From Chloroflexota bacterium (GTDB lineage Bacteria; Chloroflexota; Dehalococcoidia; SM23-28-2; JACOUE01), in NCBI GenBank assembly GCA_016178045.1, contig JACOUE010000019.1, positions 1,377 to 65,376 of the forward strand: a DNA stretch of 64,000 nucleotides, in the 5' to 3' direction. Position 1 is the stretch's first letter. Every line of letters begins with the position of its first letter. The position numbers and the translations under genes are program-made. Below the pieces are notes generated by a model, which worked only from the letters and a program-made list of their open reading frames with translations, had not been told where the DNA came from and searched no databases. This document shows, piece by piece, positions 12,678-55,773 of this stretch.

Positions 12678-13412
12678 ATGGGGCCGATGCAGGTCCGCCA
12701 GCTGCACCCCTGGGACATCGCCCCGGCCGAGGCGCGCGCCGTGCAGGAGCGCCTCGCCATGCAGGTCATCGCCGAAGGAACGCCAGAGCAGGTGCGCTTC
12801 GTGGCCGGCGCCGACATCGCCTTCGAGGACAGACAGCCCGGCCGGCAGCCCGCTTCCGCCCGTGGCGCGGTGGTCGTCCTGTCGTACCCGGAGTTGCGGC
12901 TCGTGGAGCAGGTAGAGGTGGAGGCGCCGGTGACGTTTCCCTACGTGCCCGGGCTCCTCGCCTTCCGCGAGGTGCCGGTGTTGGCCCGCGCCTTCGAGAA
13001 GCTGGAGCACAGGCCGGACCTGATCATCGCCGACGGCCACGGCTACTCCCACCCGCGCCGCTGCGGTTTCGCCTGCCACCTGGGGTTGGTGCTGGACGTG
13101 CCCACCATCGGCTGCGCCAAGTCGCGCCTCTTCGGCGAGCACGGCCCCGTGCCCGACGAAACCGGCGCCCGCGTCGAGCTGCGGGACGGGGCCGAGGTGA
13201 TCGGGCTGGTGCTGCGGACGCGCCGGGGCGTCTCGCCGGTGTACGTGTCGGCAGGGCACCACATCGGCGTGACGGAGGCCGCGGCGTGGGTGCTCCGCCT
13301 CTGCCGGGGCTACCGCCTGCCGGAGCCCGTCCGCCTGGCCGACGCCCTCTCGAAGGGCCGGCGGCCCCAGGCCGCCGCCGAACCGGTCGTCGAGCAGCAA
13401 CGCTTCATTTAG
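12678..13412 (+). CDS. nfi: Endonuclease V
   Basis: GADIAFED...YVPGLLAFREVP...DGHGYSHPRRCGFACHLG...IGCAKSRL. Confidence 0.9.
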   Translation: MGPMQVRQLHPWDIAPAEARAVQERLAMQVIAEGTPEQVRFVAGADIAFEDRQPGRQPASARGAVVVLSYPELRLVEQVEVEAPVTFPYVPGLLAFREVPVLARAFEKLEHRPDLIIADGHGYSHPRRCGFACHLGLVLDVPTIGCAKSRLFGEHGPVPDETGARVELRDGAEVIGLVLRTRRGVSPVYVSAGHHIGVTEAAAWVLRLCRGYRLPEPVRLADALSKGRRPQAAAEPVVEQQRFI

Positions 13413-32901: not shown

Positions 32902-33370
32902 TTGGAACCCCCTCACTTAACGTTTTCTCGATAATTCAACAATTGGGATGGCCAAACATTACATGTTCTCGAGGCGCGCCTTGTCGAAGAGCACTTCATG
33001 TTCACCGCAATATAAGATGTCGACCATTGGCGACCGTTACGGGTGGCGCAGCCATCTTTGCCAACCTGAACCGAAAATGCTCCTTCGGTTTAGAACACGC
33101 ATAACGACATAAAGGTTAAACAACGGTTATGCTGCGTAGGCGTTTCAACAGACCATGCCTGCGGCAATTGCTCAAGTCGCTTCAATTTTGAAGAGAGCGA
33201 TGAGGAGGCCGTAACCAACGAGGGGACGAATCTGGGGTGGCCCTTTTTCGTAGGCTAGGGGTTTACGCAACTAAACCATCGGCCTGTCCCGGCTCGTTGG
33301 CCGGATAGGCCGCAGGTGTGGCTTAGTCGTTATGGCCTAGTCGAATGAGTAAGGGGCTATCTGAAAACGA

Positions 33371-47152: not shown

Positions 47153-48370
47153 CTAGGGCACCGCCAGCATCCGCTCCAGGGCGATGCGGGCCCAGCGGGC
47201 GGTCTCGTCGTCGACCTTGAGGTGGTTGACGACGCGCCCTTCCGCCAGGGACTCGACGGCCCAGCAGAGGTAGGTTGGGTGGATGCGGTACATCGTGGAG
47301 CAGGGGCAGACCACCGGGTCGAGGCAGAAGACAAGCTTGTCGGGGTTCTCGCGGGCCAGGCGCGACACCAGGTTGATCTCCGTGCCCACGGCCCACTCGC
47401 TGTCGGCGGGCGCCTCGCTTATGGTCCGGGCGATGAACTCCGTGGAGCCGTCCATGTCCGCCGCCTGCACCACCTCCATACGGCACTCCGGGTGGACGAT
47501 GACGTTGATGCCGGGGTGCCTGCGCCGCGCCGCCTCGATCTGGTCGACGCTGAAGCGGAGGTGGACGGAGCAGTGGCCCTTCCAGAGGATCACCCTGGCC
47601 CGCTCCAGCTGCTCGAGGGCGTTGCCGCCGAGGCTGCCGTAGGGGAGCGTGTAGTCCCAGACCGGCATCTCGTCCAGGGCGATGTCCAGCTTGAGGCCGG
47701 TGTTCCGCCCCAGGTGCTGGTCGGGGAAGAAGAGGACGCGCTCGCCCCGCTCGAAGGCCCACTCGAACACCTTCCTGGCGTTCGAGGAGGTGCAGACGAT
47801 GCCGCCGTTCTTGCCGCAGAACGCCTTGAGGCTGGCGGCGGAGTTCATGTAGGTGACGGGGACGATGCCGCCGACGCCTGCGTCCCGCAGCTCGTCCCAG
47901 GAGGCGTAGACGTCTTCGGGGTCGGCCATGTCGGCCATGGAGCAGCCGGCGGACATGTTGGGGAGGATCACCTTCTGGTGGGGCTGGCTCAGGATGTCGG
48001 CCGATTCGGCCATGAAGTGGACGCCGCAGAAGACGATGTACTGCGCCTCGGCCTGCTGGGAGGCCCACCGCGCCAGCTTGAAGGAGTCGCCCCGCAGGTC
48101 GGCGAACTGGATGATGTCCTCCCGCTGGTAGTGATGGCCCAGGACGATGCAGCGCTTGCCCAGCTTCTCGCGGGCGACGCGGACGCGCTCGATTATCTCC
48201 GGCGCGGTGAGGTGCCAGTACTCCTCGGGGATGTCCTTCTGCCAGAAGGCGAAGGCGTGCTCCTCGGCGAGGGGTTTCGTGTCCAGGGCGCGGTCGGTGG
48301 GGCACTCCATTGCCTCATTGAGGACGTCCTCCTCGGAGATGAGAGTGATGGTTTTTGCGTTGGCGGCCAC
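47153..48370 (-). CDS. nadA: Quinolinate synthase
   Basis: The start is GTG 48370. The sequence has type-III-like NadA features (ILPNMSAGCSMAD, HPEC, VVCPCSTM). Confidence 0.93.
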   Translation of the reverse strand: MAANAKTITLISEEDVLNEAMECPTDRALDTKPLAEEHAFAFWQKDIPEEYWHLTAPEIIERVRVAREKLGKRCIVLGHHYQREDIIQFADLRGDSFKLARWASQQAEAQYIVFCGVHFMAESADILSQPHQKVILPNMSAGCSMADMADPEDVYASWDELRDAGVGGIVPVTYMNSAASLKAFCGKNGGIVCTSSNARKVFEWAFERGERVLFFPDQHLGRNTGLKLDIALDEMPVWDYTLPYGSLGGNALEQLERARVILWKGHCSVHLRFSVDQIEAARRRHPGINVIVHPECRMEVVQAADMDGSTEFIARTISEAPADSEWAVGTEINLVSRLARENPDKLVFCLDPVVCPCSTMYRIHPTYLCWAVESLAEGRVVNHLKVDDETARWARIALERMLAVP

Positions 48371-48396
48371 GGGCGCGACCCTTTCCAGCGGGACTT

Positions 48397-48413
48397 AGTG
48401 TAAGACCTACACT
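48397..48413. promoter_or_regulatory. Palindrome AGTGT-N7-ACACT (candidate NrtR operator 1)
   Basis: AGTGTaagacctACACT lies just downstream of the predicted nadA transcription start. Confidence 0.45.
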
Positions 48414-48425
48414 TTCTTGACCTTC

Positions 48426-48454
48426 AGGCTAGCACAGGCGGGAGAAAGTGTCAA
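48426..48454 (-). promoter_or_regulatory. Candidate nadA promoter (TTGACA-17-TAGCCT on the minus strand)
   Basis: On the plus strand these read tgtcaa (48449-48454) and aggcta (48426-48431), with a 17-nt spacer. Confidence 0.45.
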
Positions 48455-48463
48455 GGGGACACT
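48447..48463. promoter_or_regulatory. Palindrome AGTGT-N7-ACACT (candidate NrtR operator 2, overlaps the -35)
   Basis: AGTGTcaaggggACACT lies 50 bp, centre to centre, from operator 1. Confidence 0.45.
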
Positions 48464-48468
48464 CAGGG

Positions 48469-48497
48469 GGTAGTGGGTCAGAAACTGACCCACTACC
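48469..48497 (-). terminator. Perfect 13-bp-arm hairpin (GGTAGTGGGTCAG aaa CTGACCCACTACC)
   Basis: It lies downstream of hicA and upstream of the nadA promoter. No U-tract is present. Confidence 0.45.
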
Positions 48498-48530
48498 GGC
48501 TGGAGGGGCAGCCTATCATGGCACCGGGCC

Positions 48531-48590
48531 TTAGAACACCACCGGCCGGCGCTCGCGGAAGGCGTAGGGCTGGGCGAGGCGGTAGCGGCT
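48531..48590 (-). repeat. Displaced copy C of the nrtR 3' end
   Basis: It would encode SRYRLAQPYAFRERRPVVF*. It aligns with 49957-50015 and 49084-49140. Confidence 0.7.
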
Positions 48591-48781
48591 CAGCGGCCGA
48601 TCTCCGGAACCGAGAGACTGCGGCAGATCTTGCGGGCGAGCTTGTTGGCGATGTCGGCATGACGGGGAACGGCCTCGATGGCGCCAGTGGCCGGGTTGCA
48701 CCAGAGGGAATGGCCGCCGCCCTCGCGTTTAAGGTAGCAGCCGTTCCTGCGCAGATATCGGAGCAGCGTGCTCCGCTTCAC
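48590..48781 (-). CDS. hicA: HicA-family mRNA interferase toxin
   Basis: The 63-aa protein reads LLRYLRRNGCYLKREGGGHSLWCNP. It overlaps hicB by 4 nt. Confidence 0.85.
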   Translation of the reverse strand: MKRSTLLRYLRRNGCYLKREGGGHSLWCNPATGAIEAVPRHADIANKLARKICRSLSVPEIGR

Positions 48782-48993
48782 TCGACGGTGATAGTCTCGC
48801 GTGAGGCCTGAGGGGGGACGCCACGGAGAGCATCCTCACGCCGGTCCTCAAGGATGAGGGCTACGGCCTGGGCCAGGCTGGCGCGCGCCTCTTCTTTAGT
48901 GCGCCCCTGGCCGTTGGCTCCCGGTATTTCGGGGCAGTAAGCAACATACCATTTGCCGTCGCGCTCGATGATAGCGGTGAACTCGTTCCGCAT
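48778..48993 (-). CDS. hicB: HicB-family antitoxin (short form)
   Basis: FTAIIERDGKWYVAYCPEIPGANGQGRTKEEARASLAQAVALIL. Confidence 0.8.
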   Translation of the reverse strand: MRNEFTAIIERDGKWYVAYCPEIPGANGQGRTKEEARASLAQAVALILEDRREDALRGVPPQASRETITVE

Positions 48994-49083
48994 AGCAGAT
49001 TCGTCGGGAACTTCAATGGCCTCAGGACGAATTTCCTATCACTGATACGGTACATCGAGTGGCTGCCCGCTGTCTAGTTGGGG

Positions 49084-49140
49084 CTAGAAGACGACCGGCC
49101 GGCGATCGCGGAAGGCGTAGTGCCGCGAACGGCGGTGAGG
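49084..49140 (-). repeat. Displaced copy B of the nrtR 3' end
   Basis: It would encode HRRSRHYAFRDRRPVVF*. A hand alignment gives ~74% nt identity to 49957-50013. Confidence 0.7.
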
Positions 49141-49151
49141 TCTAGTCCAAC

Positions 49152-49880
49152 CTACCGCAGCGGAACCGGCGTGGCGGTAATATCGCCCAGCGCGACCCCC
49201 TTGATCCGCTCCTCCAGAGATCGAGCGGTCTGCTCGACCTGTGAATCGACATCCTTGTCATCGTTTCTCACCTGGACTGTCCCCGCAAGCAGTCGGTCGA
49301 GCCTAAAGATGACGAGCGTGGTATGGCCCGTTGCATCACCCACGCTGAATCGATACCTCAAGCCTGTCGCCTCGTCGCCTAGACCGTCAATCGTAAACGT
49401 CTCGACGTTCTTCACGCTGAAGCCCTCCTGAGCCTCCTGACCTTCCAACCCCTGGATGTCATTCACCAGTCTGGCCAGCCAGGCCGATGCCGCGTCGGCG
49501 TCTCTGTACAGCTCCACCGCAGTGTCCGCCTCGACGGCTCCCTCGGCTTCCCCCAGCCGTGAGAAGTCACTGTAGGACAGCTCGTATCCGTTGATCCGCC
49601 CCGCCTCTGCGACGTCCGCTGCCGTGTCATTGGGGTCGGCCGTATCCTGAGCGGCGGCCTTGTTGTCCTGGAAGCCCGACTCCGACGGGCTGTTATCCAG
49701 CGGCAGGTCAGCGGCGTCGGGGCCAAGCTCCTCCTTGGGGAGGACCATGACGGCGAGCAGGCCGTTCGTTAGCGACTGGAGCGATTCCTCCAGCTCGTTC
49801 CCGCCGCCGCAGGCCGCGGCGATAGCTCCCAATGCGACCAACATCGTGCCGGCGAACATGAATGCGAACAGCGATCTCAT
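49152..49880 (-). CDS. Lipoprotein, unknown function
   Basis: ATG 49880 follows a GAGGAGGG RBS. The lipobox is GAIAAAC. GC is lower than in the flanks. Confidence 0.65.
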   Translation of the reverse strand: MRSLFAFMFAGTMLVALGAIAAACGGGNELEESLQSLTNGLLAVMVLPKEELGPDAADLPLDNSPSESGFQDNKAAAQDTADPNDTAADVAEAGRINGYELSYSDFSRLGEAEGAVEADTAVELYRDADAASAWLARLVNDIQGLEGQEAQEGFSVKNVETFTIDGLGDEATGLRYRFSVGDATGHTTLVIFRLDRLLAGTVQVRNDDKDVDSQVEQTARSLEERIKGVALGDITATPVPLR

Positions 49881-49956
49881 ATCGGCCCTCCTCGACAACT
49901 CGCCCGAGACAATTGCGGGCATTGTATCACCGGCGCTAGTTAGGCGATAGTGCGGC

Positions 49957-50634
49957 TCAGAAGACGATCGGCTTGCGCTCCCGGAAGGCGTAGAGCTGGG
50001 CTGGGCGGTGGGCGCCCTCTGCCGCCACTCGGCCCGTGGCCACGATGATCCCCAGGGAGAGCATCCGCTTGCGGAAGTTGCGCTTGTCCAGGGGCCGGCC
50101 CAGGATCGCCTCGTAGACGCGCTGGAGCTGGCTGAGGGTGAAGTACTCCGGCAGGAGCGAGTAGGCCACGTTGCTGTAGTCGAGCTTAGCGCGGAGGCGC
50201 TCGCGGGCGTAGTCGATGACGCCGTTGTTCTCGAAGGCGAGGCCCGGCAGGCTCTCGATGCTGAACCAGCCGGGCGGCCAGGCCCGGCGGCGGGCCAGCT
50301 TCGCCCGCCGGCTGTTGACCAGGGCGAAGTAGGAGACGGCCACGCTGCCCCGGCCGTCCAGGTCCGAGAAAGTGTAGAGCTGCTCCAGGTAGACGTCCGT
50401 CACCCCCGTCTCCTCCTGGAGCTTGCGGGCGGCGGCGGCGTCCAGCGACTCCTCCGGGGCGAGGAGACCGCCGGGCAGCGACCAGTAGTCCCTGAAAGGC
50501 TCGGCGCTGCGGCGGATCAGGAGGACGCGGAGGTCGTCCGCCTCCACGGTGAAGATGACCACGAGGACGGCCACGTCCGGGGACGGCCGCCGGACGGCAC
50601 TGGTAGAATGCTTGTCCTCGGCGGGATCAGCCAC
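49957..50634 (-). CDS. nrtR: NrtR-family Nudix-related transcriptional regulator
   Basis: It has a Nudix box (GGLLAPEESLDAAAARKLQEETG) and a C-terminal winged helix (LSQLQRVYEAILGRPLDKRNFRKRM). It lies near nadA and nadB. Confidence 0.85.
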   Translation of the reverse strand: MADPAEDKHSTSAVRRPSPDVAVLVVIFTVEADDLRVLLIRRSAEPFRDYWSLPGGLLAPEESLDAAAARKLQEETGVTDVYLEQLYTFSDLDGRGSVAVSYFALVNSRRAKLARRRAWPPGWFSIESLPGLAFENNGVIDYARERLRAKLDYSNVAYSLLPEYFTLSQLQRVYEAILGRPLDKRNFRKRMLSLGIIVATGRVAAEGAHRPAQLYAFRERKPIVF

Positions 50635-50643
50635 GGTATCGCG

Positions 50644-51936
50644 CTAGACGGCGGCGGGCTCGCGCACCGCCACCTGCGTCCCCTGGAGCGACCAGGGGCT
50701 CGTCTTCTCGATGCGGACGTCGACGAGGTGGCCCGGCTGCGCCCCGCCGCGGAAGTGGACGAGCTTGTTGGTGCGGGTGCGGCCGTTGAGCCGGCCGCCC
50801 TTCTCCCCCTCCACCAGTACGTCCTGGACGGAGCCGAGCAGGCCGACGTTGATCTCGGCGGCGATGCGCTCCTGCACCTCCTCCAGGGCGTGGAGGCGGC
50901 GCATCTTCTCCTGCTGGGGCACGTCCTCTCCCATCGTCCGCCAGGCGATGGTGCCCGGCCGCGGCGAGTAGGCCGCCACGTGCACCTTGTCGAAGCGCAG
51001 CTCCTCCAGCAAGTCCAGCGTCTTCTGGAACTGGGCCTCCGTCTCCCCGCAGAAGCCGACGATGACGTCGGTGCTGATGGAGCAGCCGGGCACGATCTCG
51101 CGGATGCGGTGCACCCACTCCACGTACTCCTCGACGGTGTAACCGCGGCGCATGCTCGCCAGCACCTCGTTGTCGGCGGCCTGAACGGGGATGTTGAAGT
51201 ACTCGCACACCTTGGGCAGCTCCGCCACGGAGCGGATGATGTGCTCGGTCATGTCCTTCGGGTACGACGTGAGGAAGCGGATGCGCTCCAGGCCGGGCGT
51301 GTCGTGGACGGCGGCGAAGAGGTCGCCCAGGTCCGGGCGGCCCGGAAGGTCCTTGCCGTACGCCTCGACGGTCTGGCCCAGGAGGGTGACCTGCTTCACC
51401 CCGCGCGAGGCGTGGGCGGCGACCTCGCGGGCAATGTCCACGATGGTGCGGGAGCGCTCGCGGCCGCGCCGGTAGGGGACGATGCAGTAGGTGCAGAACT
51501 TGTTGCAGCCGTGGATGACGGGGACGAAGGCCGTGGGGCCCTTCGGCTCCGGGAAGGTCTGGGGCCAGAACTCGCCGCCCAGGTCGTCGTCGGGGACCAG
51601 GGCCCGCAGGATGACGTCGAAGGCCTGGGGCCGCGCCCACACGTCGACGTAGGGGAAGCGGGCGCGGAGGTCGTCGGTGCGGGGGCCGACGAGGCAGCCC
51701 ATAACGGCGATGCGGTATTCGCCGTCGCGGCCGTCCTTGATGCGGCGGAGGTGCCCCAGGTAGCTGACGGCGCGGTCCTCCGCCTTCTGGCGGACGACGC
51801 AGGTGTTGACGACGGCGAGGTCGGCCTCCTCCGGCTTGGGGGCCGGCTCCCAGCCCAGCCTGGCGAGGCCGGCGGCCAGCTTCTCGGAGTCCGCCTCGTT
51901 CATCTGGCACCCTTCAGTCCAGATGTGGTACCTCAT
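50644..51936 (-). CDS. miaB: tRNA-i6A37 methylthiotransferase MiaB
   Basis: YHIWTEGCQMNEADSE...GCNKFCTYCIVP (radical SAM CxxxCxxC), followed by a C-terminal TRAM domain. Confidence 0.93.
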   Translation of the reverse strand: MRYHIWTEGCQMNEADSEKLAAGLARLGWEPAPKPEEADLAVVNTCVVRQKAEDRAVSYLGHLRRIKDGRDGEYRIAVMGCLVGPRTDDLRARFPYVDVWARPQAFDVILRALVPDDDLGGEFWPQTFPEPKGPTAFVPVIHGCNKFCTYCIVPYRRGRERSRTIVDIAREVAAHASRGVKQVTLLGQTVEAYGKDLPGRPDLGDLFAAVHDTPGLERIRFLTSYPKDMTEHIIRSVAELPKVCEYFNIPVQAADNEVLASMRRGYTVEEYVEWVHRIREIVPGCSISTDVIVGFCGETEAQFQKTLDLLEELRFDKVHVAAYSPRPGTIAWRTMGEDVPQQEKMRRLHALEEVQERIAAEINVGLLGSVQDVLVEGEKGGRLNGRTRTNKLVHFRGGAQPGHLVDVRIEKTSPWSLQGTQVAVREPAAV

Positions 51937-54208: not shown

Positions 54209-55219
54209 TCAGCGTCTCTGTTTCCACCGGCGGGCGCGGCTGGCGGGCACCAGCTGGCCGGCGTGGCGCGACTCGTGGGAGGTGAACATTTCGATGTAAG
54301 GCACTATCGGCAGGGTGCTGCCGTCAGACATCTGGAGGGGGACGTCCAGGTGTTCGGGCCGCAGACGGCTGAGCATGCGCAGTGTCTGGTACCGGTTGAC
54401 GGCCATCTCGTCCGCGAGCTCGCGGAGCGAGCGGCCGCGCCGCGCTTCGACCTGCTGCTGGTTCCAGCGGTCCACGTCCACGATTGCCTTGAGCTCGGCG
54501 GGGTCGCCCTCGCCCAGCAGGTAGCGGAGCCGGGCGTGGGGCCGCAGCTCGTTGGAGACGACGTGGGCGAGGAGGTCTCGGTACGACCAGCCCCGACAGG
54601 GGCTCGGCTCGTCCCAGGCGTCTTCGGCGACGGAGTAGACGGCGCGCAGGAACCCTTCCCGGCAGCGCCACATCGCCCGGAACGTGGCCTCGATCTCTGG
54701 CAGGAAGGCGAGAGGCTCCGGGCGCCAGCCGGCTTCCAGGGCCCGGCGGATGTCGTCGCCGTGCGAGCGGTCGTGGTAGCCAGACCAGAGCCAGTCCTCC
54801 ACGGTCAGCTCGTATTCGGGCCCCATGGGGACAGGCAGCGCCAGCGTCGCGAGGTGCTTGCGAGTCAGCCGCCGCATCGTCTCGAACATGGCGTCATGGG
54901 AGACGAACAGCATCTGGCGGAGGTCGGCGGGCGAGAGCCGCGCCCGCTCCTCCACCTGGCTGGCGTTAAGCGGTCGCCGGTCGAAGGTCCTGGCGGTGCC
55001 GGCGATGAACTCGGGCGTGAGGATGCCAGCCAGGATGAGGCCGGCCCCGCCGGGGCTGAGGTCGCCCACCAGGTGCGCCACCATGTCCTTGACCGTCCAC
55101 TCTCCGTAGGGGACCGGACGCGACCAGTCGGCGTCGGAGAGGGAGTCGACCAGGCGGAGGAGGTCGCGGTGGGCGGCCTTGGTTTCGCGGATGGCGGCGG
55201 TGACGACGGCAAGGGCCAT
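54209..55219 (-). CDS. Tandem DinB-like / mycothiol-dependent maleylpyruvate-isomerase-N-like domain protein
   Basis: Two repeats carry the W..KD(L)(V/L)AH(L/V)V pattern (GEWTVKDMVAHLVGDL, RGWSYRDLLAHVVSNE). Confidence 0.65.
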   Translation of the reverse strand: MALAVVTAAIRETKAAHRDLLRLVDSLSDADWSRPVPYGEWTVKDMVAHLVGDLSPGGAGLILAGILTPEFIAGTARTFDRRPLNASQVEERARLSPADLRQMLFVSHDAMFETMRRLTRKHLATLALPVPMGPEYELTVEDWLWSGYHDRSHGDDIRRALEAGWRPEPLAFLPEIEATFRAMWRCREGFLRAVYSVAEDAWDEPSPCRGWSYRDLLAHVVSNELRPHARLRYLLGEGDPAELKAIVDVDRWNQQQVEARRGRSLRELADEMAVNRYQTLRMLSRLRPEHLDVPLQMSDGSTLPIVPYIEMFTSHESRHAGQLVPASRARRWKQRR

Positions 55220-55221
55220 GG

Positions 55222-55773
55222 TTAATCCTGGCCCATGATACGACGGCGGAGAAGGATGGCGGAAGCGAGGGCGAGCGCTATTCCGCCGAGGGCGGACCCG
55301 AGGACGATGCTCGGCCAGGGGACGTCGCCGTCACCGGTCGGGGTGCCCAGGCCGGTGACCGCCACGACTTCGTCCAGGAACCGCTGGTCGCCCTCCTCGC
55401 CGGCGAGGTGGGTGGAGCCGTCGCAGATGTTGGTGCGGTACCGGCCCACGCCGGCTTGCAGGAAGAGCAGGTACGGCTCGCCCAGGGAGTCGCGCTCCAG
55501 GAAGCCGCAGTCTGCCTCGCCGACGGGATCGTCCACGGTGATCTCGACCGGGCCGTCCCCTTTTAGGTAGCGCTGGACGACGACTATGGCGTCGACGCCG
55601 CCTCTCTCTTCGTCGAGGAGGCGCACCACCTTACCGGTAGCGACGATGTCGGCGCCGGCGACGAGTTCGGCGGCAGTCGAGGCCGCGCAGGAGCAGGCGT
55701 AGGCGGGGGGTACGGGCCCGAGGGTTAGCCCGGCGATGACCAAGACGGCCGCCGGGATAAGAAACCGATTCAC
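55222..55773 (-). CDS. Secreted, C-terminally anchored protein with N-terminal CSC motif (TIMP-like OB fold?)
   Basis: The signal peptide ends at AYA|CSCA. A C-terminal TM segment is present. The family call is tentative. Confidence 0.5.
   Translation of the reverse strand: MNRFLIPAAVLVIAGLTLGPVPPAYACSCAASTAAELVAGADIVATGKVVRLLDEERGGVDAIVVVQRYLKGDGPVEITVDDPVGEADCGFLERDSLGEPYLLFLQAGVGRYRTNICDGSTHLAGEEGDQRFLDEVVAVTGLGTPTGDGDVPWPSIVLGSALGGIALALASAILLRRRIMGQD

Follow-up and report, generated by a model that had tools for sequence, protein, structure and literature searches.

A 64-kb stretch of DNA (hereinafter designated the window), taken from one contig of the metagenome-assembled genome (MAG) of an uncultured Dehalococcoidia bacterium, carries an intact gene for the Nudix-related NAD regulator NrtR, followed by two small inserts and by nadA, the gene for quinolinate synthase. 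The 3′ end of nrtR is present three times, once as the working end of the gene (copy A) and twice further downstream as short relics (B and C), and each insert lies between two of these copies. The order of parts is miaB, nrtR ending in copy A, a lipoprotein gene with its spacer (cassette 1), relic B, a hicBA toxin-antitoxin (TA) pair with its spacer (cassette 2), relic C, the nadA promoter and nadA. The miaB-like gene is the conserved upstream neighbour of nrtR, with miaB-nrtR synteny in 28/28 relatives examined. NrtR scores 149 bits against the NtrR-type repressor family of NCBIfam, under the equivalog cut-off; its Nudix and NrtR winged-helix domains, the nadA-nadB genes downstream and palindromes in the nadA promoter qualify it as a predicted NrtR regulator of NAD synthesis. 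The assembly comprises 2.03 Mb in 85 contigs, is about 90% complete and holds a single nrtR. Comparisons were made with relatives that are likewise uncultured Dehalococcoidia MAGs, including a metagenome set of 80 loci; nrtR loci from relatives are labelled L, genomes G (G000 being the present one) and its contigs C, each with a number.

The three copies form the top direct-repeat family of the region in a repeat search (48522-48584, 49075-49137 and 49948-50010), and their spacings of 553 and 873 nucleotides (nt) equal the lengths of the two inserts. Over the last 57 nt, ungapped identity is 44/57 for both A/C and B/C and 42/57 for A/B, the last reproducing the value of about 74% that a sequence-only reading of this DNA had obtained by hand. 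When all 57-mers on both strands of the window were compared with copy A, the next best matched at 32/57. With nhmmer, a profile of nrtR ends taken from 29 relatives recovers both relics (C, E=1.7e-11; B, E=3.6e-8), in agreement with the repeat search and with the earlier statement that the nrtR end recurs in one orientation with its stop codon kept in place: the stop codons are in register in all three copies (TGA in A, TAG in B and TAA in C), and all three ends encode YAFR(E/D)R(K/R)P(I/V)VF. The longest exact word common to any two copies is 15 nt, and the 12-mer CTACGCCTTCCG is invariant in all. Genome-wide, the nrtR end is present only in these three copies; a fourth candidate on contig C75 (E=1e-4) lies in a low-complexity region of an unrelated open reading frame (ORF) and was rejected as a chance match. 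A motif search across 65 genomes of the order, in which a control pattern gave no match, found at most one copy in each of the 64 other genomes.

Gene and domain searches place the lipoprotein gene between A and B and hicBA between B and C, as had been read from the sequence. The GC content of the inserts in 300-nt windows is 59-66%, compared with 67-73% in the flanks and with the figure of about 55% given earlier for the lipoprotein insert, which was too low. The cassette 1 lipoprotein has no match in Pfam or NCBIfam and belongs to no known family; its single homolog among 5.8 billion clusters (64% identity) lies in a different neighbourhood, judged from the gene calls of its contig. In cassette 2, the hicB product matches UPF0150 and HicB_lk_antitox at 17-18 bits, below the Pfam cut-offs, and the hicB stop codon overlaps the hicA start by 4 nt (GTGA). 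Homologs of hicB, 69-82% identical, are paired with hicA in L036, L089, L091, L100, L153 and L154, and the 4-nt overlap is kept in these six loci. By domains and adjacency, hicBA classifies as a HicAB type II TA pair with putative toxin and antitoxin activities. A scan of 48300-50100 for promoter and terminator consensus sequences returned nothing that passed strict rules, and the promoters in Table 1 were identified by eye and conservation only.

Table 1. Features of the nrtR-nadA locus (window positions) and further gene-end duplications in the same genome (contig positions); aa, amino acids
Feature	Position	Strand	Remarks
miaB-like radical-SAM methylthiotransferase gene	50644..51936	-	Pfam UPF0004+Radical_SAM+TRAM
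nrtR (Nudix-related NAD regulator), intact	49957..50634	-	Pfam NrtR_WHD 97 bits, NUDIX 59 bits
Copy A, working nrtR 3′ end	49957..50015	-	ends ...HRPAQLYAFRERKPIVF, stop TGA
Cassette 1 spacer	49881..49956	-	-10-like GTGATACAATGCC and ribosome-binding site GAGGAGG, read from sequence
Cassette 1 cargo, putative secreted lipoprotein gene	49152..49880	-	242 aa, signal peptide ...AIAAAC-GGG
Relic B, displaced nrtR end	49084..49142	-	HRRSRH-YAFRDRRPVVF, stop TAG; 5′ third degenerate, 3′ two-thirds allele-like
Cassette 2 spacer	48994..49083	-	contains TAGACAGCG at 49068-49076
hicB-like antitoxin gene	48778..48993	-	71 aa, UPF0150 fold only, without DNA-binding domain
hicA toxin gene	48590..48781	-	63 aa, Pfam HicA_toxin 33.3 bits (cut-off 27)
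Relic C, probable oldest displaced nrtR end	48531..48589	-	YRLAQP-YAFRERRPVVF, stop TAA; directly behind hicA stop codon
Hairpin between relic C and nadA promoter	48464..48502	.	18-nt arms, 89% complementary
nadA promoter	48397..48463	-	TTGACA-17-TAGCCT, with GTGT...ACAC palindromes
nadA (quinolinate synthase), downstream flank of hot spot	47153..48370	-	Pfam NadA 329 bits
purU-end pair	G000:C65:32208-32261 and 32912-32965		differences mostly synonymous or conservative; design as at nrtR
DnaE-end pair	G000:C24:10962-11014 and 12981-13033		insert 57% GC, flanks 68%
VWA gene end around PD40 lipoprotein gene	C56:16357-16429/17751-17823		
Pair around two small secreted ORFs	C85:54518-54581/55686-55747		
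59-nt pair around vapBC	C39:8981-9039/9793-9851		PIN + MazE/AbrB
Pair around HicB-like ORF	C61:55979-56069/56666-56756		
Pair around AbrB-type antitoxin	C24:6717-6796/7556-7635		
Pair around lipoprotein and one other ORF	C13:50179-50260/51864-51945		

Across the relatives, miaB-nrtR synteny is constant, and the gap between nrtR and nadA measures anything from about 100 nt to over 8 kb. Its contents are arrays of "EEYFQ" lipoprotein genes (18 loci), a small Nudix gene (8 loci), genes for membrane proteins, hicBA, or nothing. In the compact loci L018, L020 and L071-L076, the nrtR stop codon lies about 8 nt before the nadA -35 region; relatives of this kind, with nrtR directly upstream of nadA and one copy of its end, had been expected if the repeats mark insertions. 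In alignment, relic C and the DNA downstream of it match these loci colinearly through their unbroken nrtR end and nadA promoter. This colinearity marks relic C as the ancestral nrtR end, still joined to its old neighbour, in line with the proposal that the inserts lie between a working end and older, displaced ends.

The copies are clearly derived from nrtR and share its orientation, which would also hold for remnants of decayed tandem nrtR paralogs, an outcome that had been named in advance as fatal to the insertion proposal. However, the well-preserved relics begin at positions 85-91 of a 150-nt profile, that is, 60-66 nt from the gene end, and they lack the 80 nt of nrtR before that point, which are just as conserved. 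In none of the four well-preserved relics does a trace of this upstream sequence remain beyond a boundary 57-66 nt from the stop codon, and relic C is immediately abutted by the hicA stop codon. Since the decay of paralogs would not yield a common 5′ boundary, and since the end motif is at most single in the 64 other genomes of the order and nrtR itself is single in every genome with an NrtR match (40 relatives searched), we regard this explanation as highly improbable.

The arrangement recurs in other lineages. L100 reads nrtR-spacer-hicBA-relic, L089 reads nrtR-hicBA and then a relic that has decayed and contains an in-frame stop, and L077 reads nrtR-lipoprotein-relic-nadA promoter, its relic being again colinear with the nrtR end and promoter of relatives; in L091 and L036 (from genome G040 of the order), nrtR-hicBA is present but no relic can be recognised. 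The junction between the hicA stop codon and the relic, TGA-GCCGC(C/T)ACCGCC, is identical in design in the window (relic C) and in L100, and TAGACAGCG of the cassette 2 spacer is also found in the L100 spacer behind the working nrtR end, the L089 form being TGGACAGCG. The L100 relic matches the working end of its own locus over the first 39 nt and then shows 5 mismatches clustered in 9 nt; 6 nt after it begins the small Nudix gene, which in L043, L044, L046 and L047 stands immediately behind the working nrtR end. The segment from relic B through hicBA to relic C is thus the same module as in L100. Because L100 carries this spacer-hicBA-relic module behind a functional nrtR end, B was probably once the working end, with the lipoprotein cassette added later in front of it, which agrees with the earlier suggestion of successive insertions that push the older end downstream.

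These independent loci also bear on the trivial possibility that the assembly has strung together strain variants of the hot spot through their shared nrtR end. The source is a MAG of 85 contigs and the hot spot does vary between close relatives, but the longest exact word shared by the copies is only 15 nt, shorter than the k-mers that de Bruijn assemblers usually employ, and the same architecture stands in independent contigs of other metagenomes (L077, L089 and L100). An assembly artefact is scarcely credible on these grounds.

On the NrtR tree, the hicBA loci do not group together; well-supported branches require at least three changes, through either repeated loss or exchange among close relatives. 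The third-codon identity of hicBA to the window is 0.62-0.63 for L100, 0.49 for L089, 0.49 for L091 and 0.37 for L036, and that of nrtR is 0.69, 0.59, 0.53 and 0.49, respectively. Since the divergence of hicBA tracks that of nrtR, the linkage of the two appears to be old rather than recent. Members of the same hicBA clade are found in G039 (upstream of miaB), G059 (between thiolase-like genes) and G048 (at a contig edge), where no flanking gene-end duplicate was seen by eye. The first of these (L153, G039:C6:234668-235070) is divergent from miaB and upstream of it, so that miaB-nrtR separates it from the position that hicBA has in the window; here, too, a flanking duplication is not visible.

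Support for recombination within the repeated block comes from the sister contigs L083 and L100, whose nrtR genes are 98% identical and whose downstream DNA is wholly unrelated. The two genes agree at all 306 nt up to position -26; 4 of the final 25 nt then differ, and the unrelated DNA follows (Fisher p=0.002); along the gene the divergence runs from 4% to 0% and then to 16%. The recombination breakpoint lies at -26/-25, just after the invariant CTACGCCTTCCG, which is also the most conserved coding segment (YAFR).

The relics could alternatively have arisen in place, by a staggered break of about 60 nt with long target duplication, in which case the copies would be identical at birth, would diverge later and would involve no foreign end. 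Such insertions are a described class for restriction-modification genes, with repeats of 30-400 bp and no mobility genes (Furuta et al. 2010, PMC2853133); the same genome holds a 53/53 example around a GmrSD gene and several at 86-98% identity, and this process may well be the origin of the first relic of each kind. At nrtR, however, B and C resemble copy A (42-44/57) no more than they resemble the working ends of other lineages, relic C being nearer to those of L100 (50/57) and L043 (49/57) than to copy A (44/57). The 3′ 36 nt of B and C, which encode YAFRDRRPVVF and YAFRERRPVVF plus stop, match the working ends of 60 relatives as well as A does (mean match 26.2 for B, 26.7 for C and 26.9 for A, of 36), as expected from the earlier claim that each insertion brings a replacement end; copy A groups with the same relatives as the remainder of nrtR.

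All of the decay is concentrated in the 5′ parts of the relics, where 7/12 codons are non-synonymous relative to the family consensus (invariant HRPAQL), compared with 1/22 in the 3′ parts. Uniform neutral decay would not look like this (combined p about 1e-3, codon counts), and the asymmetry is a prediction of a crossover in mid-block: the 5′ part of a relic would travel with the cassette and need not code, and its 3′ part would be the former working end of the recipient. With their 3′ parts preserved as intact alternative alleles with different stop codons, B and C look like replacement alleles, not decayed copies of A. Together with the sharp L083/L100 breakpoint inside the block, these features make in-place duplication an unlikely account of the locus as a whole.

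The sequence-only reading had noted the lack of an integrase or transposase in the window, and profile searches of the contig likewise gave no match to tyrosine recombinases, serine recombinases, rve or DDE_Tnp_1. The whole assembly holds four tyrosine recombinases, which include three Xer-like enzymes and a 426-aa integrase, together with one marginal resolvase and one rve fragment, all on other contigs. The search for a cognate enzyme was extended by tblastn to about 150 nrtR loci with up to 8 kb downstream, and no tyrosine recombinase was found near nrtR with three of the genome's own four as queries, a set with which distant types could be missed. An attC-like or other hairpin in the repeat was considered and rejected: the three copies share no single-strand fold, one strand giving z-scores of +0.25, -1.6 and +1.5 and the other -0.7, -3.2 and 0.0. 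Nor do the two cassette types have end sequences in common, and an inverted-repeat core is absent from the block.

A recombinase acting in trans might still use the terminal block of nrtR as an attachment site and mobilise integrase-less cassettes of the CIME or IMEX type, the candidates being the three Xer-like enzymes, the 426-aa integrase or an enzyme lost from the assembly. Relic boundaries that fall within about 10 nt for three different cassettes speak for it, as do the 12-nt CTACGCCTTCCG, invariant in all copies and abutting the L083/L100 breakpoint, and the presence of four tyrosine recombinases elsewhere in the genome. The absence of such a gene near nrtR in the loci searched, the lack of common cassette ends and of an inverted-repeat core or hairpin, and the alternative reason for conservation of the 12-mer as a coding segment speak against it, and so does the wider genome, in which similar scars at unrelated sequences would need many specificities from very few recombinases.

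At least ten further pairs of short direct repeats were found by comparing the genome with itself. They are 50-175 nt long, 80-100% identical and 0.2-2.7 kb apart; each duplicates a gene end, 3′ or 5′, around a small insert, and every pair is a different sequence. The inserts carry vapBC, HicB-like, GmrSD, DUF2283 and lipoprotein genes, with domains confirmed for examples (Table 1). The design seen at nrtR recurs at purU (Formyl_trans_N+ACT), whose last 54 nt, including the TAG stop, appear again 704 nt downstream (48/54) around one DUF2283 ORF. A perfect 53/53 repeat, made up of the terminal ~32 nt of a DnaE C-terminal (HHH_6+OB) gene and the 21 nt downstream, surrounds a 605-aa GmrSD type IV restriction gene and is a textbook case of "insertion with long target duplication". 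Six pairs, on C56, C85, C39, C61, C24 and C13, are 59-91 nt long and 86-92% identical, duplicate gene ends or gene starts and enclose no recombinase; the end of an acyl-CoA dehydrogenase gene is also among those duplicated. Not every small insert in the genome carries such a scar: the two-gene insertion between sucC and sucD (window 54209-55773) has no relic of the sucC end. Two tRNA loci show a related picture, also without an integrase inside. A whole tRNA gene is duplicated at 98.7% around 2.6 kb (C41:16710-16784/19306-19380), and the 3′ half of another, at 88%, flanks 4.5 kb with a gene for a 1362-aa secreted protein (C57:3975-4023/8464-8513).

A recombinase dedicated to nrtR cannot explain these further scars, because their sequences differ from one another, and we regard the trans-acting enzyme as distinctly improbable. 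The idea of two successive site-specific insertions is retained with one qualification: the place of insertion is specific, whereas a dedicated site-specific recombinase is not supported when scars occur genome-wide at unrelated sequences. The same observation favours recombination guided by homology.

We therefore favour, with slightly better than even confidence, sequential displacement guided by homology at an integrase-free nrtR-nadA hot spot in this Dehalococcoidia order. Small self-contained cassettes would enter the nrtR-nadA gap attached to a foreign nrtR end and recombine within the conserved terminal block of about 60 nt, with the exchange point near the invariant CTACGCCTTCCG. Either a circular cassette bearing one copy of the block could integrate through a single crossover, or a double crossover could take place with nrtR serving as the left arm and the relic of the donor as the right. 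By either route, nrtR would keep a complete functional end, now partly derived from the donor, and the resident end would shift downstream as a non-coding relic, still joined to what followed it. In the window, hicBA would have arrived first, leaving B as the working end and C as the relic; the lipoprotein cassette would have arrived second, leaving A as the working end and turning B into a relic. The first duplication of each kind possibly arose by insertion with long target duplication, and the addictive nature of hicBA possibly favours stacking over replacement. The joining is most likely done by host homologous recombination of the RecA type rather than by an integrase, to judge from the patterns described above.

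Several observations weigh against homology-guided displacement. Scans of metagenomes and species representatives yielded no excised circle and no conspecific empty site or donor allele, the closest relative having an NrtR 81% identical. The window's own nrtR gives no mosaic signal, the same relatives being the best match in all four segments of the gene. RecA-type recombination works poorly on a block of 60 nt at 75-90% identity. The 5′ boundaries of the relics cluster at -57 to -66 for three different cassettes (that of L077 perhaps at about -72 by eye), which a dedicated site-specific enzyme would explain more directly. Finally, with the hicBA insertion being old, the preservation of the 3′ part of relic C is not fully explained; it is possible that this part has been kept allele-like by renewal at each transfer or by gene conversion.

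Taking homology-guided displacement together with the scars elsewhere in the genome, we raise, tentatively and with some doubt, the broader possibility of a class of recombinase-free mobile units in these bacteria. Small cassettes with TA, defence or surface-protein genes would each carry a single copy of the terminal 25-60 nt of some conserved host gene as a homology arm, enter the end of that gene in any relative by host recombination and restore the gene; the relic of the old end would serve as the arm for the next transfer, addictive cargo such as hicBA would resist replacement and therefore stack, and the nrtR locus and the at least ten further scars would be the footprint.

The cassette 1 spacer, a putative promoter by eye and by conservation, resembles the spacer CGTGCTAT(A/G)ATGCCGCCAAC found in front of further lipoprotein genes behind nrtR (L077, L083 and L085). 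An upstream spacer of the form GTG(A/C)TA(C/T)(A/G)ATGCC(C/G)C(A/C)A is common to unrelated lipoprotein genes behind nrtR that have similar signal peptides (window 49881-49956; L077 673-720; L083 2082-2139; L085 4175-4226), which suggests that mature-domain lipoprotein cargo may be exchanged behind a common promoter and signal module. Homology of the window lipoprotein to the "EEYFQ" family was considered and rejected, as the signal peptide alone aligns. In L050 and L052 (G029 and G031), L057, L059, L063 and L091, the gap often holds two to three tandem paralogous lipoprotein genes of about 180 aa with the motif ...ACGGGG...LEEYFQ..., and no nrtR relics are detectable between these genes.

Downstream of relic C, an alignment with 8 relatives shows that the nadA promoter block is conserved, including the GTGT...ACAC palindromes, which are presumed NrtR operators. 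The hairpin in front of it sits in a stretch of about 70 nt that is missing from the compact relatives in the alignment, and it may act as a terminator or insulator. Its arm GGTAGTGGGTCAG occurs at four further places in the genome (C6:27668, C41:32903, C50:8251 and C85:48448), and the word TAGTGGGTC is also found 3′ of hicA in L036; this hairpin-arm word may be a small dispersed motif.

Many horizontally acquired genes reside in hot spots without an integrase or transposase, and their route of arrival is only partly understood (Oliveira et al. 2017, PMC5635113). The present locus is an unusually readable record of such arrivals, with two dated layers, an ancestral junction preserved on the oldest relic, independent states in relatives, both occupied and differently occupied, and a breakpoint placed to a few bases. 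What it suggests is a double role for the conserved end of housekeeping genes, as a landing pad and as a homology arm that travels with TA, defence and lipoprotein cassettes. If general, this would explain gene-end relics that annotators usually ignore and would provide a sequence signature for recently acquired cassettes in the genomes of uncultured organisms. Its value is mainly mechanistic, with modest practical stakes.

Among known systems, integron cassettes resemble the inserts in being single-gene, often promoter-poor, frequently TA-encoding and stacked in one orientation. The nrtR locus differs from integron arrays in that it has no attC-like fold and no intI nearby, and its repeat is the end of a housekeeping gene. 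Islands that integrases insert into the 3′ ends of tRNA or protein genes are bounded by repeats of that end, supply a replacement end and accrete in tandem at one site. The nrtR locus is like these islands and CIMEs in having a gene 3′ end as direct repeats, a replacement end and tandem accretion, and unlike them in that no integrase was found across the ~150 loci searched and the inserts are only 0.55 and 0.87 kb. Any identical core spans at most 12-15 nt; the invariant CTACGCCTTCCG is a candidate for it, and is also the most conserved coding segment. Insertions at tRNA genes are among the cases discussed in PMC2853133.

"Insertion with long target duplication" was described for restriction-modification genes by Nobusato et al. 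2000, as cited in Furuta, Abe and Kobayashi 2010, NAR 38:2428 (PMC2853133). In the relevant sections of that paper, the units are small and without mobility genes, are flanked by direct repeats of more than 30 bp that are single-copy where the insert is absent, and sometimes use the 3′ end of the upstream gene. The nrtR locus agrees in its 57-60-nt repeats, single-copy in relatives with adjacent nrtR and nadA, and in its inserts of 873 and 553 nt (below 20 kb) with no mobility genes inside or beside them. It departs in its cargo, a TA pair and a lipoprotein gene rather than restriction-modification genes, and in its repeats, which are allele-like and 74-77% identical, where those tabulated in the same sections are mostly 87-100% identical; unlike the tabulated cases, it also has two events stacked and the same site used in several lineages.

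Neisseria has minimal mobile elements (Saunders and Snyder 2002, cited in PMC1797815), and these, like the hot spots without mobility genes that are diversified by recombination in flanking core genes (Oliveira et al. 2017), share with the nrtR locus the varied sets of one to three genes between conserved neighbours, here miaB-nrtR and nadA. In both systems, exchange is ascribed to homologous recombination in the flanks. As presented in the portions of PMC1797815 and PMC5635113 consulted, both involve replacement between two flanking genes, with no duplicated ends or stacking described.

The displacement of rhs C-terminal tips, with its analogue in the orphan cdiA-CT/cdiI modules, is among the closest counterparts. 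For rhs, tip displacement by homologous recombination with a circular intermediate and a single crossover has been proposed (Jackson et al. 2009, BMC Genomics 10:584, PMC2935791). The two systems differ in that incoming rhs tips are non-homologous and change the function of the protein, whereas the incoming nrtR end would be a near-synonymous allele that preserves the gene; in that the rhs companion is an immunity gene, whereas hicBA and the lipoprotein gene are functionally unlinked to nrtR; and in that the block of homology at nrtR is only about 60 nt. In both, an intact gene is followed by displaced 3′ fragments in the same orientation that keep a conserved piece; the new end of rhs comes with a downstream gene, as that of nrtR would, and the old end would in either case be shunted downstream, not deleted. 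Homology-guided displacement at nrtR would thus extend the mechanism proposed for rhs toxin tips to ordinary genes.

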